Shown: in pieces, positions 6,703 through 32,599 of the stretch
Layout: each line of letters begins with the position of its first letter
Position numbering within the stretch: the stretch's first letter is position 1
The notes under the pieces: generated by a model
What the model was told of the DNA's origin: nothing
The model's database searches: none
Seen by the model: the letters and a program-made list of their open reading frames with translations, nothing else
Program-made: the position numbers and the translations under genes
NCBI GenBank assembly: GCA_027020785.1
Contig: JALUVI010000069.1
Span: 1-50,972 of the forward strand
Direction of reading: 5' to 3'
Length of the DNA: 50,972 nucleotides
Source of the DNA: Planctomycetota bacterium
GTDB taxonomy: Bacteria; Planctomycetota; UBA1135

Positions 6703-7188
6703 ATGCGTCGTTGGGCTCCCCTGACCGTCTCCCTCGCCCTCGCAACCGCCGCAGCCTGGTTCGGCATGCAGGCGTGCGGAAGCCTCGCCGGAGGCCCCGC
6801 CCCGCCCGTCACCGCCACGAGCTGGGCCCTGCCGGCCGACCTCGACCAGCCGCCGGACCCCAATCGGGGCTGGCGCGTCCTCGCCTTCTTCGCCCCCGAT
6901 TGAGGGACGTGCATCCACGAAGTCCCCGACCTCGTGCAGGTCCGGCGGCAATACCGGGATCGCGGCGTGGAAGTGATCGGGCTGACCCGCTCGAGCCGCG
7001 AAGAAGCCATGGCCTTCGCCCGGCGCCATGGCGCCGACTACCCCATCGTCGGCGCGGCCGACGAGGCCTTCCGCGACTACCACGTCTTCTTCGTTCCCGT
7101 GGTCTACCTGGTGAGCCCCTCCGGCATGGTCGAGGCCGACGGCCTGGAGGAGACCCGAACCGTGCTCGCGCGCGAGTTCGGTTCCTAG
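6703..7188 (+). CDS. TlpA/ResA-like periplasmic thiol-disulfide oxidoreductase with a UxxC active site (in-frame TGA 6901-6903 read as selenocysteine)
   Basis: Track ORFs 6661..6903 and 6934..7188 are in the same frame and separated only by TGA. The joined protein reads ...WRVLAFFAPD-U-GTC-IHEVPDLVQVRRQYRDRGVEVIGLT...YHVFFVPVVYLVSPSG. This aligns to the canonical FWATWCGPC...GV.V..V...VP.tflid redoxin pattern. An N-terminal signal peptide is present. Confidence 0.75.
6916..6942 (+). promoter_or_regulatory. candidate SECIS hairpin(s) downstream of UGA 6901
   Basis: Two mutually exclusive folds are possible. One is CACGA(6916-20)/UCGUG(6932-36) with an 11-nt loop carrying GU at +22/+23. The other is GACCU(6928-32)/AGGUC(6938-42) with loop CGUGC. 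Both are less canonical than the other two SECIS elements. Confidence 0.45.
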
Positions 7189-7829
7189 ACCTCCTCTTCG
7201 GGGACGAAGGGACCGGTCCAGGCGGGAACGCCGAAGCGGTCGCGCGACACGCACTCCTCCCAGTCGAGGAAACCGAGTCGCGGCCTCGGCGCGTCACTCG
7301 GATGGCCGAGCGTGACCATCAACAGCGGCGGATGGTCCTCGTCGAGCCCGAGCGACTCGGAGACGGCCTCGGGGTCGAATCCGATCATCGGGCAGCTGCC
7401 GAGCCCCTCCTCCTCGGCGGCGAGCATCAGGCTCATCCCGGCGAGGCCGACCGAACGGCAGGCCTCGTCGCGCAGGAGCCGATCCTTTCCTTCGTAGATG
7501 CCCTGGATCATGTCGTGCAGCTTGGCCCGGGCCGCCTCGGGGGCGTGGCGCAGGAAGCGGTCGGTGCGCCGGTGCGCCGTCAGGTCGCCGGCGAGGACCA
7601 CCACCGCGGCGGCCGTCCCGACCTGTTCCTGCCGCCACGACGCCTCCCACAGGGCGCGCCGCACCTCGGGGTCGGTGACGACCACCCAGTGGACGTTCTG
7701 CATGTTGAAGGACGTCGGCGCCAGGCGCGCCCGTGCGACGAGCCGGCGCAGCAGGCCGTCGTCGAGCGGTCGGTCCGGATCGAAGCGGTGGCGGGCGCGA
7801 CGGTGGAGCAGGGCCTGGCGGACGTCCAT
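7185..7829 (-). CDS. nitroreductase-family protein
   Basis: ORF 7185..7829. It shows RHRFDPDRPL...APTSFNMQNVHWVVV and a C-terminal GFDPEAV pattern typical of the NADH/FMN nitroreductase fold. TAGGAT lies 7 nt upstream of the ATG. Confidence 0.8.
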   Translation of the reverse strand: MDVRQALLHRRARHRFDPDRPLDDGLLRRLVARARLAPTSFNMQNVHWVVVTDPEVRRALWEASWRQEQVGTAAAVVVLAGDLTAHRRTDRFLRHAPEAARAKLHDMIQGIYEGKDRLLRDEACRSVGLAGMSLMLAAEEEGLGSCPMIGFDPEAVSESLGLDEDHPPLLMVTLGHPSDAPRPRLGFLDWEECVSRDRFGVPAWTGPFVPEEEV

Positions 7830-7836
7830 GCGTGGA

Positions 7837-7842
7837 ATCCTA
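7837..7842 (-). promoter_or_regulatory. -10-like box TAGGAT, 7 nt upstream of the nitroreductase ATG
   Basis: The reverse complement reads CCCTAGGATTCCACGCATG. Confidence 0.45.
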
Positions 7843-7855
7843 GGGCGGCCCTACC

Positions 7856-8431
7856 ATGGGGGCCATGAAGACGACCGCTCTCCTCTGCTCCCTCGCCCTC
7901 GCGCCGCTCCTCGGCGGATTCGGCTGCGCCATCGCCATCGGCAACGACGTCCAGGCCGACGGCGGCGGCCCCGACGTGGACCGCGCGGTGTGCGTCCTCC
8001 GCGGCACCGCGGGCAACGAGAGCGTCCACGGCGTCGTCACCTTCGAAGGACGCTCCGGCGGCGTGCTGGTGCGGGCCCGCGTCGAAGGGTTGACTCCGGG
8101 CGAACACGGCTTCCACGTCCACCAGTGGGGCGACGTGGACTGCCCCGACGGCAAGTGCACCGGCGGCCACTTCGACCCCTTCGGGGAACCGCACGGCGCC
8201 CCGGACGCGCCACTGCGCCACGTCGGCGACCTCGGCAACCTCGTCGCCGGGCCCGACGGCGTCGCCGACTACGAGCGCCTGGACTCCCGGCTCCGCCTGG
8301 AGGGCCCCAACTCCATCGTGGGACGCGCCGTGGTCGTCCACGCCGGCCCGGACGACTTCTCCAGCCAGCCTTCGGGTGCGGCGGGGCCGCGGGTCGCAGT
8401 CGGCGTCATCGGGATCGCGCCGCCCGAGTAG
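7856..8431 (+). CDS. sodC: Cu/Zn superoxide dismutase, lipoprotein form
   Basis: Motifs GFHVHQWGD, GGHFDP, HVGDLGN and VVVHAGPDD, plus lipobox LLGGFGC. An alternative start is at 7865 (MKTTALL). Confidence 0.9.
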   Translation: MGAMKTTALLCSLALAPLLGGFGCAIAIGNDVQADGGGPDVDRAVCVLRGTAGNESVHGVVTFEGRSGGVLVRARVEGLTPGEHGFHVHQWGDVDCPDGKCTGGHFDPFGEPHGAPDAPLRHVGDLGNLVAGPDGVADYERLDSRLRLEGPNSIVGRAVVVHAGPDDFSSQPSGAAGPRVAVGVIGIAPPE

Positions 8432-21886: not shown

Positions 21887-24028
21887 ATGAACCCGCTGGT
21901 CCGCAACCACGCCCTCTGGACCGGGATGCGCCGCATCCTGCTCCTGGGCGTCGGTGCGCTCCTCCTGATGTCGGGCTACCGACTCGCCTTCGTCCTGCGC
22001 TATGCGCACCCCGAGCTCTGGCGCGACTTCCTCGCCGACCTCCCCGCGGCCTTCCTGCGCGGCGCCCTGCACGACCTGCGCATCGTGATCGTGTTCCTGG
22101 CGCCCCTGGCCCTGTCGCTGGCGTGGCTGCGCGACCGCGGCGAGGCCTCGTGGCGGCGCTGGCTGCGTTTCGCCTTCTGGTGGAGCTTCGTCGGCATCGT
22201 CCTCCTGGTCACCGTCCTCACCGCGGACATGGTGTTCTACAGCTACTTCCAGAGCCACTTCACCGTGCTGGCCTGGGGCTTCCTCGAGGACGACCTGCGC
22301 GCCGTGACCCGCGGCGCCATGAAGATCTATCCGATTCCGCTCTACCTGCTGCTGATCGGCATCGCAGCGACGGCGCTGTTCCGCCTGCTCCAGCGCGCCT
22401 GGACCCCCGGCGACTTCCTCCAGCCCCACCACCGTACGCCGCCGCCCCACCTGGTCCAGCGCCAGCTCCTGCGCCTGCTCACGTCGTTCGGCGCCGGCAT
22501 CCTGCTGCTCGTGGTGTGGCCGGCGGCGGCGACGCCGCGCGAGGATCCGCGTCCGGCGGCCCCCTTCGTGCACGAGATCCCGATGAACGGCGTCGAGGCC
22601 TTCGCCGACGCCGTGTGGACCCGATTGCGCGAGGAACCGCTGTCGGTGGCGACCCGGATGGGCTTCGGGCGAGACCCCGACGAAGCCCTGGCCGTCTGGG
22701 CCGGCTCCGCCCCCGACGGCCGCCCGGAACCGGGCGGCCTCCTCACCGCCCTGCCGGAACCCGCGATGACACCGCGCCCGACCTGGGACGCGCCGCCCCA
22801 CGTCGTCGTCGTCGTGATGGAGAGCTTCTCGCTCCACCTGCTGCGCTGGCAGGGCCCCGAGTTCGACCTGCTCGGCCCGCTCGCGAAGTACTGGGACCGC
22901 GGCATCCTCTGGCGGCGCTTCCTCCCCAGCGACAACGGCTCGGCCGGCTCCATCCTGTCGCTGCTCTCGGGGCTGCCCTATCGCCCCGGCACCAAACAGC
23001 TGTCGCAGTCCGAGGACTTCCACGACCGCGCGCTGCCGACTGCACCCGCGCGCTGGTTCCGCACGTGGGGCTACCACACCCGCTTCGTCTACGGCGGTCC
23101 CCTGACCTGGCGCAATCTCGGCGAATTCGCCCCGTTGCAGGGCTTCGACGAGGTGGTGGGCCAGGAGGCGTTGCTCGCGGAACTCGGCCTGCGCCGCGAG
23201 GACGCCGCCGGCGAATGGGGCGTCTGGGACGAACACCTGTTCCGCGCCCTCGCCGACCGCCTGGAGTCGGCCGAAGGGCCGACGTTCCTGATGAGCTTCA
23301 CGACCAGCAACCACCCGCCGCACGAGTTGCCGGAAGGAACGGAGCTCCCCACGCTGACCCCGCCGCCGGGACTGCTGGAGCGGAACGGCGGACCACTGGA
23401 CGAGCTGCAGCACCTGCAGCTGCGCACCTATCAGTACGCCTGCCACCGCCTTGGACTGTTCCTCGACGAACTCGACCGCAAGGGCCTGCTCGACCACACC
23501 GTCGTCGCCGTGACCGGCGACCACACCATCGGCACGGGGATCCCCTTCAGCCACCGCGAGGCGCTGCTCGAGCGCGCCGTGCCGTTCCTGTTGTTGGTCC
23601 CCGACCGGGTGCGCCGCGAGCTCGTACCCGACGAAACGACGCCCGGCGGACATCCGGACGTCGTTCCCACCCTGATCCAGGCGGCGGGACTCGGTGGTCG
23701 CGGCTGGCGCGGGCTCGGGCACAGCCTGCTGGACCGCACAGCCAAACCGCTCGCGTCCAACCCCGCCGGCATCGTGATCGGCCGGGTCGGCGCGGTGCTG
23801 GAGTTCCCGGACGGCTACGGGACGATGACCTGGATGGACGACGGCCCGGGACTCGAGCCCTGTCCACCGTCGCCGGCGCACGAGCGCCTCCTCCTCCGCA
23901 GCAGGGCCTTCCTGGCGCTGGCCGACTGGTTGCTCTGGGAGGCGGCGCGCCCCGGGCCCGAGGCGTCACGGCAGGGTGTCCGGGCGATGGAAGCCGTCGA
24001 GGTCGGGAAGGCCGCGACTTCCGACTGA
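21887..24028 (+). CDS. LTA-synthase / phosphoglycerol-transferase family membrane sulfatase-fold protein
   Basis: N-terminal multi-TM region followed by an extracytoplasmic sulfatase-like domain (VVVVMESF, TSNHPP, VAVTGDH). Confidence 0.75.
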   Translation: MNPLVRNHALWTGMRRILLLGVGALLLMSGYRLAFVLRYAHPELWRDFLADLPAAFLRGALHDLRIVIVFLAPLALSLAWLRDRGEASWRRWLRFAFWWSFVGIVLLVTVLTADMVFYSYFQSHFTVLAWGFLEDDLRAVTRGAMKIYPIPLYLLLIGIAATALFRLLQRAWTPGDFLQPHHRTPPPHLVQRQLLRLLTSFGAGILLLVVWPAAATPREDPRPAAPFVHEIPMNGVEAFADAVWTRLREEPLSVATRMGFGRDPDEALAVWAGSAPDGRPEPGGLLTALPEPAMTPRPTWDAPPHVVVVVMESFSLHLLRWQGPEFDLLGPLAKYWDRGILWRRFLPSDNGSAGSILSLLSGLPYRPGTKQLSQSEDFHDRALPTAPARWFRTWGYHTRFVYGGPLTWRNLGEFAPLQGFDEVVGQEALLAELGLRREDAAGEWGVWDEHLFRALADRLESAEGPTFLMSFTTSNHPPHELPEGTELPTLTPPPGLLERNGGPLDELQHLQLRTYQYACHRLGLFLDELDRKGLLDHTVVAVTGDHTIGTGIPFSHREALLERAVPFLLLVPDRVRRELVPDETTPGGHPDVVPTLIQAAGLGGRGWRGLGHSLLDRTAKPLASNPAGIVIGRVGAVLEFPDGYGTMTWMDDGPGLEPCPPSPAHERLLLRSRAFLALADWLLWEAARPGPEASRQGVRAMEAVEVGKAATSD

Positions 24029-24057
24029 TCCTCCCCGTTGCCGCTCCTCTCCGATGG

Positions 24058-24063
24058 CATACT
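24058..24063 (+). promoter_or_regulatory. -10-like box CATACT, 6 nt upstream of ATG 24070 (cassette copy 1)
   Basis: GGCATACTAGGGGCATG. Copy 2 has a near-identical context. Confidence 0.4.
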
Positions 24064-24069
24064 AGGGGC

Positions 24070-25086
24070 ATGCCCGTATTCCTCCGTCTGCTCTTCGTCC
24101 TCCTCGCGCCCTTCGCCTGCGCCGGGGCCGCGCGCGCCTCCGCACTGCAGTGACGGCCCGCCCCCGGAGGCGGTCCGCCTCCGAGCTACGCCGGTCCCGG
24201 TGACGCCATGGGCCCCGGCGGCGCCTCTCCCGCCACCCCGGCCGCTCCCGCCGGCCCGGCGACCCCGGCCGCCCCCACCACACCCACCGGCCCCGCCGGC
24301 ACGACCGGCGCCGGCCCGACCACCGGCGGCGGCACCCTGCCGACCGAACACGGCAAGACCGCCAAGACCCTGCTCCGGATGCAGTGGAACTACCCGGTGT
24401 TCCGGCTCCCCGGCGAGGACGCCGTCCCCGAGGAGCGCAGCGGCACCGTGGCCCGGGCGGTGCGCTCGGCCCTGCCGAGGGAACGGGCCTTCCTCGAGCT
24501 CGCCGGCGACGACCGGCGCCCGCTGCTGGTGCTGCGCGAGTGCCTCTGGTGCAACGGCACCGACGACGCACTGTTGAGCCGCACCGAAGACAACGCCCGC
24601 ACCCTCCTCATGGCGCAGTGGTTCCACTGCGTGAAGCTGCCGCCCGACGTACTCGAGGAGGACCACCCGTTCCGCAACGTCTTCGCGGGCGACGACCCGC
24701 CGCACCTGATCCTCTGCGACTGGGACGGCTCCGGCGTCGTCACCCTGAAGGGCGACCAGTCGCGCACCGAACTGTGGGAGGCGATGGAGACCGTCCTCGA
24801 GCGCAACTACGTCGTCGACGTGAAGCGCAAACTGCGCGAGTGGGACCGCCTCATCGCCGACTACGACATGGCCGATGAGGAAGTGCTCCGGCTGGAGGCG
24901 CAGCTCGACCTCGCCATCGAGAAGTACGGGCCCAAGCACGCCAAGGTCCGGAAGTTGCGCAAGCAGCTCGAACGCGCACACGAGGACTTCGACAGGTTGA
25001 AGGCCCGTGAAGAGGAACTGCGCCGTCTCCCGCTGAAGGCCTCCGGCGAGGAGGACACCGCACGGTCCGACCGCGACGCCGGCTGA
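24070..25086 (+). CDS. cassette gene A1: secreted protein with signal peptide, Sec-28, Pro/Ala/Thr-rich linker, thioredoxin-fold CxxC domain and C-terminal coiled coil (TGA 24151-24153 read as selenocysteine)
   Basis: The short ORF MPVFLRLLFVLLAPFACAGAARASALQ* (24070-24153) is in frame with track ORF 24208..25086, and no other stop lies between them. The TGA aligns with Cys in paralog A2 (ASALQ-U-RPAPGGGPPP versus RAAAQ-C-PGPPPPP). Without read-through the protein would lack the signal peptide that A2 has. Confidence 0.7.
24165..24183 (+). promoter_or_regulatory. SECIS element (fdhF-like) for A1
   Basis: CGGAGGC-[GGUCC]-GCCUCCG forms a 7-8 bp perfect stem. Loop residues G24173 and U24174 are +23/+24 from the U of UGA, identical to the E. 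coli fdhF spacing. The Cys paralog has no equivalent hairpin. Confidence 0.75.
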
Positions 25087-25102
25087 CCCGAGGCGTCCCT
25101 CC

Positions 25103-26263
25103 GTGACGCACTCGTTCGCCGCCTTCGCCCTGCTCCTGGCCGTCGCTCCCAGCGCGGCGGCGCAGGAGGAGCCCCCCGGCGCCGACGACCCCTACACGCG
25201 GGGCGAACCCGAAGCCGTCGCCGCGGCCGGCTACCGTTCCCTCGGCCCCTTCACGCTGGGCGACGGCGTCACCACCACCAAGGTGGAAGAGGCGCTCGGC
25301 GGGGTCGAGGTGCGCTGGATCGAGACCGAGCACTTCCGCATCGGCTCCACGCTGGAGACCTGGAAGCTGGAGGACCGAGAGGAGAAGGCACTCCTCGCCA
25401 AGGAGCTCCGAGCGTTGCGGCAACTCCTTCCGGATGCGCCGAAGCGGGTGCGCAAGCTGGATCCGTGGCTGCGCGCCCACCTCTATGCGCTCCGGGCCGA
25501 ACGCGTCTACGACAGCGTCGCGGCCGTCCTCGGCGCCGACGGCGAGTCCCTCGAGCCCCTGCTCGGCGCCGGCGACCGGTTCGTCCTCCTGCTCTTCGCC
25601 AAGGAGAGCGAGTTCGGGCGCTTCGCCGAGCGATTCATCGGGCCGGAGGCTTCCCGTGGTTCCTTGCGCCACTACTTCCCCCGCTCACGCGTCCTGCTCT
25701 ACGCCGCCCATGCGGAGACCGACGCCTTCGCGCGCTCCGACCTCACCCTGCACTGCGCCGTCGCCTACAACCTCGCCATCTACCTGCTGGACGGCTATCG
25801 GGGCTACGGTTTCGCGCTGCCCGCCTGGCTGCCGGTCGGCTTCGGCCACCGGGTCGCGCGCAGCGTGAGCCCGAAGCAGAACTACTTCACGGACAGCCGA
25901 CTGTTCACCGCCGACGACGTCGCGGAGTGGCACTGGGCGCCTCGAGTCCGAGCGCGCGTCGCCAACGACTACTTCCCGAGCGCGCGGAAGCTCGGCGCAT
26001 GGGACGACCAGCTCGGCCTGAAGTTCGCGGACCACATGATGGCGTGGTCGCGGGTGGACCACCTGGCGCAGGCCGAACCGGAAGGCTTCGCACGTTTCCT
26101 TCGGGCCATGAAGGCGCCGTTCCCGCCCCGGGAATACCCGATCCCTCCGGAACGCCTGCTCGAGCGCCAATGGGAAGCCCTCCAGGCGGGCCTCGGCTGG
26201 ACGCCCGAGGAATGGGACGAAGCCTGGCGCGAGTGGGTGCTCGCGACCTATCCCAGGCGCTGA
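25103..26263 (+). CDS. cassette gene B1: secreted about 385-aa protein of unknown function
   Basis: GTG start and signal peptide VTHSFAAFALLLAVAPSAAAQ. Blocks conserved with B2: DPYTRGEP, AGYRSxGPF, WIETEHFRIG, DPWLRAHL, LLDGYRG, PAWLxVGxGH, WAPRVRARV, ADHMxAWSRVDHL, GWTPEEWDxAWRxWVLATYPRR. No HExxH motif. Confidence 0.7.
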   Translation: MTHSFAAFALLLAVAPSAAAQEEPPGADDPYTRGEPEAVAAAGYRSLGPFTLGDGVTTTKVEEALGGVEVRWIETEHFRIGSTLETWKLEDREEKALLAKELRALRQLLPDAPKRVRKLDPWLRAHLYALRAERVYDSVAAVLGADGESLEPLLGAGDRFVLLLFAKESEFGRFAERFIGPEASRGSLRHYFPRSRVLLYAAHAETDAFARSDLTLHCAVAYNLAIYLLDGYRGYGFALPAWLPVGFGHRVARSVSPKQNYFTDSRLFTADDVAEWHWAPRVRARVANDYFPSARKLGAWDDQLGLKFADHMMAWSRVDHLAQAEPEGFARFLRAMKAPFPPREYPIPPERLLERQWEALQAGLGWTPEEWDEAWREWVLATYPRR

Positions 26264-26354
26264 CGCAGCACCGAGCCCCCTACGGAACGGCGTTCCACGC
26301 GGGAAGCGCCCCAAGAAACCGAACGAAGCGGGGGTTTCCCGCCCATCCGAAGGG

Positions 26355-26360
26355 CATACT
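26355..26360 (+). promoter_or_regulatory. -10-like box CATACT, 7 nt upstream of ATG 26368 (cassette copy 2)
   Basis: GGGCATACTGGAGGGCATG. Confidence 0.4.
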
Positions 26361-26367
26361 GGAGGGC

Positions 26368-27387
26368 ATGACGCGCTCCCTGTTCTTCCTGGCCTTCCTC
26401 GCCGCGAGCCTGGTCGCGGACCGGGCCGCCGCCCAGTGCCCCGGCCCGCCACCTCCACCCGGCATCTCCACCGACACCCCGCAGTCCGGGATGAAGCCGG
26501 ACTTCGGCCCCGTGGACGATGCGCCGGCCACCACCGGCGCGCGGCCCACCCGACCGAGCACGCCGAGCACGCCGAACGCGCCGAGTGCGCCGGGCGCACC
26601 CAACCGCCCCGCGACTCCGGCCCTCCCCGCCACGCCTGCCGGCACCGCCGGTGCGCCGGCCATGACCGGCGGTGAACAGCTCCCGACCGCGCACGGCCCG
26701 AGCGCGCGCACCCTGCTGACCGTGGCCTGGACCTACCCGGTCCTCCTCGCGGACGCGGTGGACGGTCGCCGGACCTACGCCCGCCAGGCGCCTCGGGCCC
26801 TGCCCCGGGACGAGGCCTTCCGCCGCCTCGCCGGCGACGACCCCAGGCCGCTCCTGGTCCTCCGCGAGTGCGCGTACTGCCTCGGCAGCGAACGCGCCCT
26901 CCTGCGCGGCGGCGAGGACGACACCAAGACCTTCCTGCTGTCGCAGTGGTTCCATTGCGTGCGTTTGCCCAAGGAGGTCCTACGTTCCGACCACCCGTTC
27001 CACGAAGTGTTCGGTACGCCGGCACCCCACCTGCTCCTGGCGTCGCCCGATGGAACCGAGGTCGTCGCCATGCCGGGCGACCTCTCACGGGTCCAGCTCT
27101 GGAAGGCGATGGAGACCATGCTGGCCCAACACTACGACGGCCCGCTCCAGCAGCGGCTGCGCGGCCTGAACCGTCTGGTCGGCAAGTACGACGCGGTGGA
27201 CGAGGAGATCCGGGCGCTGCTCCATCAGCAGGAGCTCGCCGCCGAGAAGTACGGACCGCGGTCGGCCAAGGCGAAGAGGCTGGCGCGCCGTCTGGCCAAG
27301 GCCCGGGCCGAACGCGAGGAGCTGGACCGCCAGCGGGACGAGCTCCTCGACCTGCCGCTCCGGACGCCCGCCGCCCGGAACCCCTAG
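26368..27387 (+). CDS. cassette gene A2: Cys paralog of A1 (signal peptide, Cys-24, Pro-rich linker, thioredoxin-fold CAYC domain, coiled coil)
   Basis: MTRSLFFLAFLAASLVADRAAAQCPGPPPPP... Shared blocks with A1: LPTxHG, PLLVLREC..C, QWFHCV.LP, DHPF, LW.AMET.L, EKYGP. This is the real part of ORF 25465..27387. Confidence 0.75.
   Translation: MTRSLFFLAFLAASLVADRAAAQCPGPPPPPGISTDTPQSGMKPDFGPVDDAPATTGARPTRPSTPSTPNAPSAPGAPNRPATPALPATPAGTAGAPAMTGGEQLPTAHGPSARTLLTVAWTYPVLLADAVDGRRTYARQAPRALPRDEAFRRLAGDDPRPLLVLRECAYCLGSERALLRGGEDDTKTFLLSQWFHCVRLPKEVLRSDHPFHEVFGTPAPHLLLASPDGTEVVAMPGDLSRVQLWKAMETMLAQHYDGPLQQRLRGLNRLVGKYDAVDEEIRALLHQQELAAEKYGPRSAKAKRLARRLAKARAEREELDRQRDELLDLPLRTPAARNP
26554..26598 (+). 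repeat. five tandem degenerate 9-bp repeats inside the A2 linker
   Basis: ccgagcacg ccgagcacg ccgaacgcg ccgagtgcg ccgggcgca, encoding PST-PST-PNA-PSA-PGA. Confidence 0.7.
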
Positions 27388-27399
27388 ACCGGGCTCTGC

Positions 27400-28554
27400 G
27401 TGCTCGCCCTCACCGGCCTGCTCCTGGCCGCCATGAGCGCCCTCCCGCCGCAGACGGCGGGGGGCGCCGGGGAACGAGACCCCTACACCAGGGGCGAGCC
27501 GCAGGCGATGCAAAGGGCCGGCTATCGCTCCTTCGGCCCGTTCCGACTGTTCCGCGACGTCACCAGCGCCAAGGTGGACGAGGCCCTGGGCGACGTCGGC
27601 CTGCACTGGATCGAGACCGAGCACTTCCGAATCGGGTGCTCCCTGGGAGCGATGCGGCCGAGCGGCAGCCGGGAGCGCAAGGCCCTGGCCGCGGAACTCG
27701 AGACCCTGCGCGAACGCCTGCCGGGCGTCCCGCGACGGCCTTCCCGCGTGGATCCGTGGCTACGCGCCCACCTCTGGGCGGCCCGCGCCGAGCGGACCTA
27801 CGAACGCTTCGCCGCGCTGGCCTGCCCCGACCCCGAGCGTGACGCCCGACGGATCGATTCCCAGCGGTCCTACGTCCTCCTCCTGTTCGGCGACGCGGCG
27901 CAGGTCGGGCGGTTCCGCGACGCCTTCCTCGGCGAAGGGTTGTCCGGCGAGGCCTTCCGCTGGTCCATTCCGGTCGGCCGCGTCGAGCTCTACGCCACGC
28001 ACGGGGCGGCCCCGGCCTACCTGGACTCGGAGCTCGCCCTGCGCTGCAACGTCACCTATGCCCTGACCCGCAATCTACTCGACGGCTATCGGGGGCACAC
28101 CTTCCCGGTCCCGGCCTGGCTGTCGGTCGGACTCGGACACCTCCTGGCGCGCGAGATCAGCCCGCGCTACGACTACTTCGCCGAGGACCGCGACTACGGA
28201 CCGGATGACGTACGGGTCTGGGACTGGGCTCCACGCGTGCGGGCCCGCGTGTCCCACGGCATGGCGAGGAGCGGACGCGCGCTGGCCGCCCCCTTCGACG
28301 ACGCGGACTTCTCATACGCCGATCACATGACGGCCTGGTCGCGAGTGGACCACCTGGTGAGCACCGACCCGGCGGGCTTCGCCCGATTCGTGCACGCGCT
28401 GAAGGCGCCGTTCGGACCGGACGAGGAACCGATCACCGTGGAGGCTCTGCATCAGCGCCACTGGCAGGCGCTCCGCGAAGCCTTCGGCTGGACGCCGGAG
28501 GAATGGGACCGGGCTTGGCGGGCGTGGGTGCTCGCGACCTACCCCAGGCGCTAG
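27400..28554 (+). CDS. cassette gene B2: paralog of B1
   Basis: ORF 27400..28554 with a GTG start and signal-like N-terminus VLALTGLLLAAMSALPP. It shares the conserved blocks listed for B1. Confidence 0.7.
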   Translation: MLALTGLLLAAMSALPPQTAGGAGERDPYTRGEPQAMQRAGYRSFGPFRLFRDVTSAKVDEALGDVGLHWIETEHFRIGCSLGAMRPSGSRERKALAAELETLRERLPGVPRRPSRVDPWLRAHLWAARAERTYERFAALACPDPERDARRIDSQRSYVLLLFGDAAQVGRFRDAFLGEGLSGEAFRWSIPVGRVELYATHGAAPAYLDSELALRCNVTYALTRNLLDGYRGHTFPVPAWLSVGLGHLLAREISPRYDYFAEDRDYGPDDVRVWDWAPRVRARVSHGMARSGRALAAPFDDADFSYADHMTAWSRVDHLVSTDPAGFARFVHALKAPFGPDEEPITVEALHQRHWQALREAFGWTPEEWDRAWRAWVLATYPRR

Positions 28555-28595: not shown

Positions 28596-29801
28596 GTGCC
28601 CGTCACCCTCCTCCCCTCGCTCGTCCTCCTCCTGACCTGCGCCCCGCCGGCCCAGGAACCCGCCGCCGCAGTCGAAACCGTCGCCGGCGACTTCGGCCTC
28701 GGCCTGCGTCCCGTGGGCCTGCGCTTCGACCAACCGTTGTGGGTGGTCTCGGCGCCCGACGACGCCGAGGTCCTCTTCGTGGTGGAGAAGCCGGGGCGGG
28801 TACGTGCCGTGGTCCGCGGCGAGCTCCAGCGGGAGCCGGTGCTCGACCTGCGCGATCGCATCTCGGACCGTTCCGAGCGCGGGCTCCTGTGCCTGGTGTT
28901 CCATCCGAACTGGGGACGGGACGGCGAGGACTCGGTCTTCCTGCACTGGAACGACCGCAGCGGGCACACCCACGTCACCCGAAACCACCTGCCGCGCCCC
29001 GAACCGGGTGCCCCCTGGCGCGCGACCGACGAGGAGGAACTCCTGCTGTTCGTGGAGCAGCCCTTCCCCAACCACGATGGAGGCCAGCTCGCCTTCGGCC
29101 CGGACGGCCATCTCTACATCGGCCTCGGCGACGGTGGCGCAGCCAACGACCCGCTCGCCGCCGGCCAGGACCTCACCACCCACCTGGCGAAGATCCTACG
29201 CATCGACGTGGACGGCGGCAGCCCCTACGCCATCCCTGCCGACAACCCCTTCGTGGACGTGGAAGGCGCCCGACCGGAGATCTGGGCCTACGGCCTGCGC
29301 AATCCCTGGCGCTTCTCGTTCGACCCGGAGACGGGCGACCTCTGGATCGGCGACGTCGGCCAGAACCTGTGGGAGGAAGTGGACTTCCTGCCCGCCGACC
29401 ACGGGGGCGGCGCCAATTTCGGCTGGCGGCGCTGGGAGGGCAGCCACCCCTTCGACCCCGACCTGGAACTCGGGCCGACCCCACACGTGCCGCCGATCTT
29501 CGAGTACCCCCACGGGGCTCCGCACTACGACTGCTCGGTGACGGGAGGGTTCGTCTACCGCGGTGACGCCATCCCGGAGCTGCGCGGCTGGTACCTGTGG
29601 GCCGACTACTGCAGCGGACGGGTCGGGGCCCTGAAACAGGAGGGCGGGCAGCTGGTCGCTTCGCTGGACCTGACCCGCGACCTGGCGCCGAACACGAAGC
29701 TGCCAGCGCTGTGCTCCTTTGGACGCGACGCCGACGGCGAGCTCTACCTGGTCAGCCTCCAGGGGCCGGTCTGGAAGATCGTCCCGGAGGAGGCGGACTG
29801 A
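28596..29801 (+). CDS. PQQ-dependent sugar dehydrogenase (soluble aldose/sorbosone dehydrogenase, YliI-like)
   Basis: ERGLLCLVFHP, NHDGGQLAFGPDGHLYIGLGDGG, YGLRNPWRFSFD, WIGDVGQNLWEEV and GGFVYRG are characteristic beta-propeller motifs. Confidence 0.88.
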   Translation: MPVTLLPSLVLLLTCAPPAQEPAAAVETVAGDFGLGLRPVGLRFDQPLWVVSAPDDAEVLFVVEKPGRVRAVVRGELQREPVLDLRDRISDRSERGLLCLVFHPNWGRDGEDSVFLHWNDRSGHTHVTRNHLPRPEPGAPWRATDEEELLLFVEQPFPNHDGGQLAFGPDGHLYIGLGDGGAANDPLAAGQDLTTHLAKILRIDVDGGSPYAIPADNPFVDVEGARPEIWAYGLRNPWRFSFDPETGDLWIGDVGQNLWEEVDFLPADHGGGANFGWRRWEGSHPFDPDLELGPTPHVPPIFEYPHGAPHYDCSVTGGFVYRGDAIPELRGWYLWADYCSGRVGALKQEGGQLVASLDLTRDLAPNTKLPALCSFGRDADGELYLVSLQGPVWKIVPEEAD

Positions 29802-29881
29802 CCCCGCTGCGGCGGAACTCCACGCGGACGTCTCGGGGCGCTGGGAGGGAGGCTGGGCGCCCCCCCCCGGCGGGCGGGGAA

Positions 29882-29959
29882 TGGTCGGGGCGAGAAGATT
29901 CGAACTTCCGACCTCTGCAACCCCATTGCAGCGCGCTATCCAGACTGCGCCACGCCCCG
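29882..29959 (-). tRNA. tRNA-Pro (anticodon GGG), CCA encoded
   Basis: The reverse complement is CGGGGCGTGGCGCAGTCTGGATAGCGCGCTGCAATGGGGTTGCAGAGGTCGGAAGTTCGAATCTTCTCGCCCCGACCA. I folded the cloverleaf by hand: 7-bp acceptor stem, anticodon loop A-U-GGG-G-U, T loop TTCGAAT. Confidence 0.9.
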
Positions 29960-29970
29960 ACCGGTGGGGA

Positions 29971-29976
29971 ATTGTA
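29971..29976 (-). promoter_or_regulatory. -10-like box TACAAT upstream of tRNA-Pro
   Basis: The reverse complement reads GCGTACAATTCCCCACCGG, followed by the tRNA 5' end 11 nt downstream. Confidence 0.45.
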
Positions 29977-30114
29977 CGCGCCGGAGGGCCTGGCTGGCAA
30001 GAGGGGCCAGGCGACGCGAGGCGCGGGGGAAAGCGGCTCAAGCCGGACCGCGGTGATCCGCAAAGGGGGTGGCAGCGTCGTTGGAAGAAGGAGCGCTGAC
30101 TGCCATGATGGGTG

Positions 30115-30148
30115 CCGGCGGCCGCAAGGCCGCCGGTTTTCTTCTTCT
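30115..30148 (+). terminator. intrinsic terminator with no annotated gene upstream (orphan)
   Basis: CCGGCGGCC-GCAA-GGCCGCCGG (9 bp perfect, GNRA loop) followed by TTTTCTTCTTCT. A T-run like this is rare in this GC-rich window. Confidence 0.6.
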
Positions 30149-30271
30149 GGGCCGCGGAGCGCGTCTCCCACCCCGCCGGCCCCGATGGTTCGCCGTTCGA
30201 AAGCTCAAGGAGGCCGAGGCACGGCCGTGAAGGAAGGGCGGTCGAGCCCCCGGCTCGATCCGAACTCCGAC

Positions 30272-32599
30272 ATGAAGACCCTCCTCCTCACGACGACCTT
30301 GACACTGGTGAGTCTGGCCGCAGCGCCCCCCGTGGCCGCGGCATCCCCTTCCGCCCTCGCCCCGCAGCAGGAGCTCCGCCAGGTCTCCGGCGAGCGCGTG
30401 ACCAGGACCCGGCGCGCCGTGCCCAAGGGCGGGGCCGTCGGCGCCACGCACGGCGACACTGCGGCGCGCAAGAGCAAGAAGAAGGGCGCGAAGTCCTCGA
30501 GCCTGGCCGTCCTGGCCAGGCGCATGGGCATCGATACCAAGCGCCTGCGCTCCGAAGTCGTCCGGCTCCGGCGGACGGCGAACCCGCGGATCGCCGTGAG
30601 TCGCTTCATGGCCCGGATGGGCGACCTCCTACCCGAAACGACGGCAGCCCGCAACGCCGTCTTCCGCCGTCTTGCGACGATGGCGGGCAAGGGCAAGCGA
30701 CGGGCGCAGCTGATGCAGGCGTTCCAACGCACCGACCGTTCTGCGTCGGCCTCCGGAGGGGGCGCCTCCGCAGGCAACCGACGCGGCGCCGGCGGCGGAA
30801 CCTCCGAGGTCAACGTCGGCCCCGGTGAGTTCGCCTCGAACCCGGCCGGCGGCACCGCCCAACCGATGACCACGCGCGGCTTCGGCATCGTCGGCTGGAC
30901 GGCCACCGACGGGTTGGCCGACCAACTCCAGGAGATCGGGTTCCAGGACTCGCTCTACCGACGGACGTTCTTCCTCCCCGACCCGCAGCGCGGCAGCCTC
31001 ATCGGGCGTGACTTCGCGCTCGCCTCGAGCCGCGGCTATCGCACCTGGCTGACCTGCGTCGGTACGCCGATGGACCTGTCGCCCCACCCGGAGGAGACCG
31101 GGACCGAGTACGGGACCGGGCTCGAGGCCTACGCCCGCTACGTCCCCACCGACGGCGTGGCCTGGGCCGACCGGGTCCTCGACTTCATCGACACCATCGA
31201 GGCCACGCCCGGCGCGCGGGTGGACCACGTCGAGATCTGGAACGAGGTCGAGCGGGTCGAATGGTTCTCGTCCTCGCTCGAGGAGTTCCTCGCCTTCTAC
31301 GACGCGGCGGCGACCCGCATCAAGACGGTGCGCCCCGACATCGAGGTCGGCGGTCCCGGCCTGGCCGGCTGGAGCAGTACCATGGGTGGCGACGAATCGG
31401 TGCTCTTCGCCTTGGTGCGCCACGTCGCCGAGAGCGGTGCGCCGCTGGACTTCGTGTCGTGGCACCACTACACCGAGGCCAACGAGCTGCTGGCCAGTCG
31501 GGTGGTGGAGAAGCTGCGCAAGCTGCAGGTCTCGCTGGGCCTGCCGCGCTTCGAGACCGTGGTCAGCGAATGGAACCTGTACCCCAGCGCACAGGGCGAA
31601 CACGGCTACCAGTTCGACGGCCCCTGGGCGGCGGCGGCCTACGCCGGCTTCTCCACCACCGCAGGGGAAATGGGGCTGGACGCCAACCTGTTCTTCCTCG
31701 ACGTGGACGAAGCGGACGACGGCGGTCTGACCGACCTCGCGGGGGTCGGCCTCGGCGCCATCACTCACCACGGCATCCGCAAGCCGGTGGCCCGGTTGAT
31801 GGAGATCCTCCTCGGCATGGCGCGGGAGAGCGTGGTGCCGGTCGAGGCGCCCCTCCAGGAGTACTCGGTGCGCATCGCCGCCACGCGGCTCGGCACCAGG
31901 GTCCGCTACGTCATCAGCAACGCGCCGGTCAGCGGCCACTGGATGTTCGTGACGAAGTCCAGGGAGGCCGGCATGGACCCGGGCTGGTTGTACCCGATCT
32001 GGCTCGCCGCAGGCGGTCCCCAGGCGACGGTGACCACGCTCATGGCCCAGGGGCTGACCGAGCAGCAGGCCGAGGACACGCTGGCCTTCATCCCGGCGGT
32101 GCTCGAGGCCGACGTGGAGACGGCCCAGCCCACCGAGGTCGTCCTCACCCTGACCGGCACCGCCCCCGTCCAGGTCACCGAGGTGCGGCGCTTCACCCAG
32201 ACCGTCAACGCACCGGCGAACCACCTGGACACGCTGACTCCGCAGCTCCAGCTCGCCGAGGACATGGCCCGCGAGGCGACGGCCATCGAGGTCGCGGACT
32301 TCCTGACCACGGAAGGCTACCCGACCACCTCGGACGAGCTGCTCGGCATCGATCAGGAATTCAAGGACTGGGCCGACGGTCGGGGCATCCCCTTCGGCAT
32401 CCAGGTCCGGGCCATCGCGATGATGAACCAGGGGCTGTTCGACAACCGCATCGTCCAGGGCGCCTGGCTGAACACCCTCCCCGAGACGACCGTCCTGGTC
32501 GAGGACGCCCAGAGCGCCGGCGTGGTGCTCGACGGCCGCAAGCTCCGCCTGACCATGGAGCCCGACAGCGTGGTCGTCGTGGACGTCGAGATCTACTGA
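30272..32599 (+). CDS. secreted clan GH-A glycoside hydrolase (GH39-like) with a basic low-complexity N-terminal region
   Basis: Signal peptide MKTLLLTTTLTLVSLAAAPPVAAA. Candidate acid/base motif VEIWNEVE and nucleophile motif VVSEWN. This is the real part of ORF 29597..32599. Confidence 0.6.
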   Translation: MKTLLLTTTLTLVSLAAAPPVAAASPSALAPQQELRQVSGERVTRTRRAVPKGGAVGATHGDTAARKSKKKGAKSSSLAVLARRMGIDTKRLRSEVVRLRRTANPRIAVSRFMARMGDLLPETTAARNAVFRRLATMAGKGKRRAQLMQAFQRTDRSASASGGGASAGNRRGAGGGTSEVNVGPGEFASNPAGGTAQPMTTRGFGIVGWTATDGLADQLQEIGFQDSLYRRTFFLPDPQRGSLIGRDFALASSRGYRTWLTCVGTPMDLSPHPEETGTEYGTGLEAYARYVPTDGVAWADRVLDFIDTIEATPGARVDHVEIWNEVERVEWFSSSLEEFLAFYDAAATRIKTVRPDIEVGGPGLAGWSSTMGGDESVLFALVRHVAESGAPLDFVSWHHYTEANELLASRVVEKLRKLQVSLGLPRFETVVSEWNLYPSAQGEHGYQFDGPWAAAAYAGFSTTAGEMGLDANLFFLDVDEADDGGLTDLAGVGLGAITHHGIRKPVARLMEILLGMARESVVPVEAPLQEYSVRIAATRLGTRVRYVISNAPVSGHWMFVTKSREAGMDPGWLYPIWLAAGGPQATVTTLMAQGLTEQQAEDTLAFIPAVLEADVETAQPTEVVLTLTGTAPVQVTEVRRFTQTVNAPANHLDTLTPQLQLAEDMAREATAIEVADFLTTEGYPTTSDELLGIDQEFKDWADGRGIPFGIQVRAIAMMNQGLFDNRIVQGAWLNTLPETTVLVEDAQSAGVVLDGRKLRLTMEPDSVVVVDVEIY

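Follow-up and report, generated by a model that had tools for sequence, protein, structure and literature searches.

Duplicated envelope modules of a Planctomycetota bacterium pair a predicted exported Sec/Cys thioredoxin-fold protein with a degenerate metallopeptidase-like protein

The DNA analysed here, a stretch of 50,972 nucleotides from a Planctomycetota bacterium (contig JALUVI010000069.1) that we call the window, carries two consecutive two-gene modules, A1-B1 and A2-B2, which are two copies of an envelope module widespread in Planctomycetota. Protein A is predicted to be exported and to have a thioredoxin fold, and directly behind its signal peptide it has a conserved residue that is Cys in A2 and very probably selenocysteine (Sec, U) in A1, where the codon is an in-frame TGA; protein B is secreted and is predicted to have a metallopeptidase fold that has lost the catalytic motif. 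The best overall explanation of these features is, in our view, that an exported Sec/Cys thioredoxin-fold protein and a non-peptidase partner form a module built around a redox arm, an explanation for which our belief and our doubt are evenly balanced. The genes and sites are collected in Table 1; positions are window coordinates and all module genes are on the + strand.

The open reading frames (ORFs) of both modules agree exactly with those of the original prediction, which was made from the letters of this DNA, and the motifs that it quoted (PLLVLREC-xx-C, QWFHCV, WIETEHFRIG, DPWLRAHL and ADHMxAWSRVDHL) were all located. Its estimate that about half the residues are identical between the copies compares well with the measured 49% for A1 and A2 (272 aa, E 3e-85) and 52% for B1 and B2 (361 aa, E 7e-128). 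Within each module the genes are close together, with gaps of 16 nt between A1 and B1 and 12 nt between A2 and B2. A sister genome (L081/L082) has the same gene order as the window, A1-B1-A2-B2 followed by the glucose/sorbosone dehydrogenase gene GSDH, and the ratios of nonsynonymous to synonymous substitution rates (Ka/Ks) against it are 0.24 for A1, 0.30 for B1, 0.17 for A2 and 0.23 for B2. All four genes are thus under purifying selection and neither copy is decaying, in keeping with the earlier proposal of an old and maintained duplication.

The argument for reading the A1 TGA as a Sec codon begins with the reading frame. From 440 matches to the B family among GTDB species genomes we retrieved 79 genomic loci, all from metagenome-assembled genomes of Planctomycetota, and where an A gene was present the frame was walked upstream from its conserved domain. 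At 46 loci (45 genes plus that of Engelhardtia mirabilis) a single frame runs from a signal peptide through one or two TGA codons into the thioredoxin-like domain, and the canonical signal peptides end in …A-x-P-Q, after which the TGA codon or codons follow in the frame of the domain. Seven genomic paralogues or orthologues, A2 and six others, have Cys at the position of the UGA, as do 31 of the 120 best database members, where it is likewise preceded by Gln; the local contexts are …AAAQ-C-PGPP… in A2 and …SALQ-U-RPAP… in A1. The A1 orthologue of the sister genome keeps the TGA, has an identical hairpin behind it, and has an intact signal peptide that is nevertheless only 52% identical. TGA is the ordinary stop codon of 20 of the 36 A and B genes at the loci with two consecutive UGA codons, so it has not been reassigned genome-wide.

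Directly 3′ of the UGA lies a GC-rich hairpin that resembles a bacterial selenocysteine insertion sequence (SECIS), with an apical loop that nearly always contains GU (GUG, AGUU, GGU, GGUC or GUC). With its loop G at +23, the A1 hairpin has the same geometry as the fdhF SECIS of E. coli (G23/U24). When the hairpin was defined as a stem of at least 6 bp with a loop of 3-6 nt containing GU and the G at +20 to +29, it was found at 36 of the 46 UGA sites, against a rate of 2.7% at 220,682 background positions taken from these loci, and at none of the seven TGC or TGT sites of the Cys forms, A2 included. The corresponding binomial probability, about 1e-47, overstates the evidence since the sites are related. 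Among the genes with one UGA the loop G is at +23 in 12 and at +26 in another 12. The stem sequences vary between lineages, and in a model-fitted alignment of 25 sites seven of the eight stem pairs had changed on both sides; the covariation score of 0.35, compared with 0.15 in shuffled alignments, was reached in none of 500 shuffles. A covariance model of the UGA sites found, at E < 0.065 in 844 kb, A-gene UGA sites only. Its weaker matches elsewhere (E 0.07-1) were inspected and judged false. The Sec reading of A1 in the original prediction is therefore upheld by the frame conserved at 46 loci, by the Cys homologues and by the SECIS-like hairpin.

Some results count against this reading and have to be set beside it. 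No selA, selB, selC or selD gene was seen in the window or in the 1.09 Mb of fetched loci, which are loci and not whole genomes, and ARAGORN found no tRNA-Sec in the same sequences. A control in which the hairpin alignment was slid by -1 scored 0.31, close to the 0.35 of the alignment itself, which had been fitted to the model. RNAalifold predicted no helix on a plain MAFFT alignment of the regions downstream of the UGA, a result that we attribute to the hairpins being shifted by one or more columns in that alignment, and Rfam at gathering thresholds gave tRNA only, and no SECIS match, in the window. PMC4807772 reports a complete Sec machinery for other Planctomycetes.

The public annotation of the A family bears on the same question. 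A profile search found at least 158 A-family proteins, and those with names are all hypothetical or uncharacterized, save for one evidently spurious label of "vacuolar-type H+-ATPase subunit I/STV1". Among the best 120 members, 87 are without a signal peptide and are called from a variety of internal start codons, and 31 are full-length Cys forms that read …A-Q-C-P-P-P-G-G-Y…. Truncated starts in 87 of 120 are what would be expected if gene callers restart after the UGA. It is barely credible that the A1 TGA is instead an ordinary stop, with the 27-codon ORF a separate peptide or leader and A1 a cytoplasmic protein that starts internally (for example at ATG 24208) or a decaying copy: gene callers do annotate the family in this way, and E. 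mirabilis is annotated as a 29-aa ORF plus a 261-aa ORF, but the called starts fall at differing, non-homologous positions, the frame is kept across the UGA at 46 loci that each have a bona fide signal peptide, the SECIS-like hairpin and the Cys of homologues mark the site, the Ka/Ks of A1 is that of a maintained gene, and both the Cys paralogue and the B partner are exported.

Table 1. Genes and sites of the two A-B modules and their neighbours in the window
Feature	Position	Strand	Note
A1	24070..25086	+	ORF with in-frame TGA at 24151-24153 (codon 28)
B1	25103..26263	+	GTG start; 386 aa; secreted; predicted degenerate MA-clan (collagenase/DUF1570-like) fold; no HExxH
A2	26368..27387	+	Cys-type paralogue: signal peptide, Cys24, linker, predicted thioredoxin-fold domain, helical hairpin
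B2	27400..28554	+	GTG start; 384 aa; secreted paralogue of B1
A1 signal peptide, MPVFLRLLFVLLAPFACAGAARASALQ	24070..24150	+	27 codons; frame shared with the rest of A1 across the UGA
A1 predicted Sec28 codon (UGA)	24151..24153	+	Aligned to A2 Cys24
A1 tether	24154..24390	+	Pro/Ala/Thr/Gly-rich, including a Y-A-G-P-G-D motif; also encodes the SECIS-like hairpin
A1 SECIS-like hairpin, CGGAGGCG-GUC-CGCCUCCG	24165..24183	+	11 nt 3′ of the UGA; G of the loop at +23 (counted from the UGA's U)
A1 thioredoxin-fold domain, C-terminal helical hairpin and stop codon	24391..25086	+	From alignment and fold model
A1 CxxC, Cys158/Cys161	24541-24552	+	
A2 Cys24 codon	26437-26439	+	Equivalent position after the signal peptide
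A2 CxxC, Cys168/Cys171	26869-26880	+	
GGCATACT motif before A1	24056..24063	+	6 nt 5′ of ATG (GGCATACT-N6-ATG, 24056-24072); common to A2 and the L082 A1 orthologue
GGCATACT motif before A2	26353..26360	+	7 nt 5′ of ATG (GGCATACT-N7-ATG, 26353-26370)
Sulfatase-family protein (PF00884)	21887..24028	+	Pfam match and synteny; upstream neighbour kept in the clade
PQQ-type glucose/sorbosone dehydrogenase GSDH (PF07995)	28596..29801	+	Downstream neighbour kept in the clade

By the sequence evidence the A family is mostly Sec-type, and it has U-C, U-U and C-U dyads. The residues at the site read Q-U-C at 21 loci, Q/G-U-U with two consecutive TGA codons at 17, Q-U-G…C at four, G-C-U at three and Q-U-R at one, which is A1 of the window, with the Cys forms (Q-C) at seven. 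In the tandem genes the most frequent distances of the loop G are +26 (first UGA) with +23 (second UGA), or +29 with +26, so both codons are within the range of spacings that the family tolerates and it is plausible that one hairpin decodes both. The E. mirabilis locus (L080:9773-12165; CP036287.1, the complete genome of a cultured strain) has the U-U form, as a 29-aa ORF, TGATGA and a 261-aa hypothetical protein, and a 417-aa B gene comes next. An aromatic motif, Y-x-G-P-G/S-D, is found at about +12 or +13 from the Sec in 21 of the 46 Sec-type genes, and the Tyr of Cys forms is typically at +6; compared with the Cys-to-Tyr distance, Sec-type genes have about six or seven extra residues before the motif, which coincide with the hairpin region. 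These extra residues would be a case of an RNA signal shaping a protein linker.

Two further arrangements were seen among the A genes. The A genes at L044:2415 and L054:8810 read G-G-C-U-G-P after the signal peptide and have a tether of only about 16 residues before the folded domain. At L071:5602-9098 a Cys-type A and a U-U-type A stand in tandem before a single B gene, and the Sec and Cys forms there appear to share this one partner. Separately, a lipoprotein reading of the N-terminal Cys was considered and rejected: the lipobox [LVI][ASTVI][GAS]-C calls for a small residue at -1, where nearly every member has Gln (A-A-Q-C, x-P-Q-U).

The layout originally proposed for A is supported: the signal peptide leads to a lone Sec in A1 or Cys in A2, behind which come a low-complexity linker, the thioredoxin-fold domain and a coiled-coil hairpin of helices. 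In an AlphaFold2 model of A2 built with 121 sequences, the N-terminal ~100 residues are disordered with low predicted local distance difference test scores (pLDDT), the domain has a pLDDT mostly >90, and a long helical hairpin spans residues 260-327. Strand 162-166 is followed by C168-x-x-C171 and then by a helix, which places the CxxC at the start of helix 1. Foldseek matched the domain to thioredoxins, to the DsbD C-terminal domain and to PDI and AGR2 domains (probability 0.9-0.99), so the thioredoxin-like domain recognised by eye is also recovered from the predicted model. D158, R160-P-L-L-V, R166, C168, C171, T188, H221, Y256, D275 and D278 are invariant among the 121 sequences and H209 is nearly so; a Pro one or two residues before His221, at the start of strand 222-225, is by its position in the sequence a candidate for the cis-Pro opposite the active site. 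According to the model, then, A combines a thioredoxin fold, whose CxxC is invariant, with a helical hairpin on its C-terminal side. A1 and A2 gave no matches to Pfam or NCBIfam at E <= 1 except coiled-coil noise, and the A and B family profiles gave coiled-coil noise or nothing against PDB sequences; the absence of meaningful matches in these searches agrees with the earlier view that neither protein belongs to a characterised family.

Protein B has, on the strength of a structural model (pLDDT 88.8; predicted TM-score 0.88), a degenerate metallopeptidase fold of the MA clan, which is collagenase/DUF1570-like. The top Foldseek matches were the M9 collagenases of Vibrio and Grimontia (7wss, 8jt1, 7esi and 9l5o; probability 1.0, TM-score 0.41-0.46), followed by M1 aminopeptidases. 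Weak Pfam matches were seen in relatives of B, to DUF1570 in 2 of 27 (best E 2.9e-5) and to Peptidase_MA_2 in 4 of 27 (best E 0.14), with Peptidase_M9 also touched, and B1 and B2 themselves had no Pfam match and no meaningful one in NCBIfam. An exhaustive profile search found 1,050 cluster representatives at E <= 0.001, of which 310 were at E <= 1e-30. The original prediction described B as secreted, with no HExxH and with no catalytic motif to name; secretion and the missing HExxH hold, but B is not without a recognisable fold. In all 86 aligned B sequences the HExxH is replaced by F/Y-N-x-x-x-N, and the Glu that would be the third ligand is also absent from B1 (P-A-W-L-P-V-G-F-G-H) and B2 (P-A-W-L-S-V-G-L-G-H). 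Because the zinc-binding and catalytic HExxH motif has been lost, B is more likely a partner than a protease, most simply a binding protein, and it is probably non-proteolytic.

It could be argued that B has kept an enzymatic activity, as a peptidase or amidase with a non-canonical site, and that it processes A, for example by trimming the N-terminus or tether to expose or release the Sec peptide. The MA-clan fold and the tight linkage of A and B would be in keeping with this, Glu74, His77, His126, Arg131 and Glu133 are invariant and His311 nearly so and could form another site, and many relatives retain the Glu of P-x-W-x-x-E-G-x-x-H. Nevertheless, the substitution of HExxH in every sampled member of the family, the additional loss of the third-ligand Glu in both B proteins of the window and the failure of any Pfam peptidase family to score above its gathering threshold make this quite improbable.

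The pairing of A with B was examined across the loci. A adjoins B at 50 of the 79 loci that were found via B and at all four further loci that were found via A, and A mostly precedes B, although the order is occasionally reversed. Distances within the A family are correlated with those within the B family (r = 0.84), and the two simple neighbour-joining trees are congruent. The co-conservation expected in the original prediction is supported by adjacency and congruent trees, but about one third of the sampled B loci have no A. At 15 of these 29 loci a secreted HEAT-like protein is encoded upstream of B (L034, L038, L040, L041, L043, L048-L050, L052, L053, L055, L056, L075, L076 and L079), so the B family has at least two alternative partners. 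This HEAT-like protein has about 300 aa, is conserved, looks all-alpha and lies at ~6800-7950 in each locus. That relatives of B also pair with this protein, which is unrelated to A, counts against a dedicated A-B partnership. A third conserved gene of the module was not seen in the neighbourhood survey of the loci, apart from the clade-specific sulfatase, GSDH and GH39 neighbours.

Modules with Cys and Sec forms also stand in tandem elsewhere. At L001, L003, L005 and L085 the Cys module is first and the Sec module second, and in the window the Sec module comes first. The Cys-type A proteins of L001, L003 and L005 form a clade, as do their B proteins (L085 was left out of the trees), and the two B copies of the window are sisters in the B tree. 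The sister relationship and the reversed order suggest that pairs of Cys and Sec modules arose more than once, by independent duplications. The apparently repeated origin fits the idea of selenium-dependent and selenium-independent isoforms.

A mechanism for the module can be put forward by analogy. The signal peptide exports A, and the conserved residue that comes right after it, usually preceded by Gln, is very probably Sec in A1 and is Cys in A2; the SECIS hairpin that would recode the A1 UGA is of bacterial type and lies within the part of the gene that codes for the tether. The tether joins the reactive Sec or Cys to the thioredoxin-fold domain with its invariant R-E-C-x-x-C, behind which comes the helical hairpin. 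The tethered N-terminal selenol or thiol might then be the working centre of an extracytoplasmic redox reaction, in which it would reduce peroxides or oxidised proteins of the envelope or take part in thiol-disulfide exchange. In relatives the vicinal U-C, C-U or U-U pair could form a selenenylsulfide or diselenide. The CxxC of A's own thioredoxin domain would recycle the selenol or thiol, comparable with the electron shuttle of the Gly-Cys-Sec-Gly arm of thioredoxin reductase (TrxR). B, presumably co-transcribed with A and secreted as its binding partner, would hold the substrate or the Pro/Gly-rich tether. The Sec copy would be the high-activity form that requires selenium and the Cys copy the selenium-independent form. 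The redox-arm mechanism for A is held tentatively, with doubt somewhat the stronger; we infer both the "periplasmic redox relay" and the selenium-dependent and -independent isoforms that the original prediction had put forward. Two observations tell against a redox arm. The invariant C-x-x-C together with His221 would suit a metal site equally well, and function does not depend on a vicinal redox pair, since Sec stands alone in A1 of the window (Q-U-R) and Cys stands alone in the Cys forms.

The main rival to a redox function is that A is an extracytoplasmic binder or metallochaperone for soft metals (Cu(I), Hg, Cd, Zn or Ni), with B as its partner or acceptor. Sco-type proteins bind copper via a thioredoxin fold, and in A a tethered N-terminal Sec/Cys dyad might capture the metal and pass it on to a site of two Cys and one His in the thioredoxin-fold domain. 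C168, C171 and H221 are invariant and H209 nearly so. Vicinal CU or UC pairs are found in predicted metal-binding selenoproteins such as MbdU and the CopZ-like GxUC/CU proteins, and UxxU in a putative mercuric reductase (PMC13188914 Table 1). The inner dipeptide of the CxxC is highly variable, which is unusual for a tuned redox site, and forms with a lone Sec or a lone Cys exist. Set against this, A has no Pfam or NCBIfam similarity to Sco, CopZ or other metallochaperone families, Foldseek returned thioredoxins and the DsbD C-terminal domain and not Sco, and no conserved metal-resistance genes were found near the module in the surveyed loci. The lone Sec/Cys forms and the variable dipeptide do not clearly favour either the redox or the metal model, and on balance we regard metal binding as distinctly unlikely.

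A role as a selenium carrier or store, in which an N-terminal Sec or Sec-Sec tail delivers or sequesters selenium in the envelope and has no catalytic part, is very improbable: the Sec is indeed carried by a disordered tail that is not part of the folded domain, U-U is a common form and selenoprotein P, with its Sec-rich tail, offers a loose parallel, but each protein has one Sec or at most two, the CxxC of the thioredoxin domain does not vary, and Cys-only forms are frequent and conserved, which implies that the chemistry of the position matters and not its selenium content.

Returning to a redox arm on a thioredoxin-fold protein, the nearest known systems each share some of its features. Extracytoplasmic proteins of the thioredoxin, DsbD C-terminal domain, TlpA and ResA type are, like A, exported proteins of thioredoxin fold with an invariant CxxC, but A has R-E-C-x-x-C in place of W-C-x-x-C, has no family match at the sequence level and is extended on both sides, by a Sec/Cys on an N-terminal tether of ~16-90 residues and by a helical hairpin at the C-terminus. 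In mammalian thioredoxin reductase the Gly-Cys-Sec-Gly arm at the C-terminus presents adjacent Cys and Sec residues on a flexible extension near a dithiol centre, and the two loci with the short tether read G-C-U-G; in A, however, the arm is N-terminal after a signal peptide, is mostly U-C or U-U, and has a thioredoxin fold as its partner and not a flavoprotein, and A1 has a lone Sec. The likeness to thioredoxin reductase is an analogy only and involves no homology. For B, the gluzincins of the DUF1570, Peptidase_MA_2 and M9 collagenase families share the overall predicted fold and the P-x-W-x-x-E-G that many B relatives keep, and differ in having the HExxH that the B family lacks and the third-ligand Glu that B1 and B2 lack; B has no PDB sequence match.

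Catalogued selenoproteins were compared in the same way. MbdU, the CopZ-like GxUC/CU proteins, SaoC and the thioredoxin-like UxxC/CxxU proteins (PMC13188914 Table 1) are, as predicted for A, encoded with UGA and SECIS, have Cys homologues and show a thioredoxin-like fold or a vicinal chalcogen motif, but the Sec of A would be at the mature N-terminus and not in the CxxC, and no listed family has U-U or the same architecture. A 2026 review of prokaryotic selenoproteomes describes 119 families and does not mention Planctomycetes, and none of its families has the architecture or the U-U motif of A (PMC13188914). The NCBIfam models that define catalogued selenoprotein families gave no match to A, and we found no published description of the A family in a literature search that did not cover subscription journals. 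What is new is the Sec at an exported N-terminus, the frequent tandem UGA codons and the obligate pseudo-peptidase partner, all as predicted here; a SECIS-dependent selenoprotein and a thioredoxin fold are known.

A bolder generalisation, which we think somewhat unlikely, is that A represents a phylum-wide class of exported selenoproteins with an N-terminally tethered catalytic or ligand residue, in which a single SECIS within the ORF recodes two consecutive UGA codons in about one third of the members, giving them a vicinal Sec-Sec N-terminus able to form a diselenide, and an obligate pseudo-collagenase-like partner grips the tether or the substrate. If true, it would be a new kind of envelope machine for redox or metal handling and a natural test case for the decoding of adjacent UGA codons by SelB. 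Two adjacent UGA codons before one hairpin would in any case be a natural system for the limits of SECIS spacing, single-UGA genes already using both +23 and +26, and a Sec that begins the mature form of an exported protein, and is not part of the thioredoxin active site, would itself be of interest. The splitting or truncation of most A members in public annotation means that selenium use in Planctomycetota is under-counted. The pairs of Cys and Sec modules would be a clean model for the evolution of Sec/Cys isoforms, and the cultured carrier E. mirabilis makes the claims about the A family testable.

The sequences 5′ of the A genes seem to differ between lineages. The shared GGCATACT promoter context of the original prediction is present before both A1 and A2, but among the loci compared the motif is kept solely in the closest relative, and no match to a sigma-70-like consensus was detected upstream of the module; GGCATACT may be a candidate -10-like element or part of a 5′ leader. 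A sigma-54 promoter (TGGCAT-N5-GGGCA 5′ of A1) was rejected, since its -12 element would run into the ATG and A2 has a different spacing. A different motif, TGGCATGATAGGCTAG, is common to L022, L028 and L031, about 30-45 nt before the start of A. The 5′ signals of A genes are thus lineage-specific, with TGGCATGATAGGCTAG in these three loci and GGCATACT at A1 and A2 of the window and the L082 A1 orthologue.

As for the neighbouring genes, a sulfatase gene lies directly 5′ of the A-B modules in the window and in L001-L007, L035 and L085, with GSDH and sometimes GH39 genes on the 3′ side. The N-terminal part of the sulfatase-family neighbour, hydrophobic as read from its translation, may be membrane-embedded, and the products of the sulfatase, GSDH and GH39 genes all look like envelope proteins. 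No convincing second selenoprotein emerged when the window was scanned for other genes with an in-frame TGA. At window:37363 (+) a TGA parts two coding-looking ORFs of the same frame, which are most simply a gene with a normal stop and the next gene, and there is no selenoprotein signature. A tRNA-Pro(GGG) gene lies at window:29882-29959 (-), between the GSDH and GH39-like genes, and since the + strand ORF at 29597-32599 crosses it, the true start of the GH39-like gene must be further downstream.

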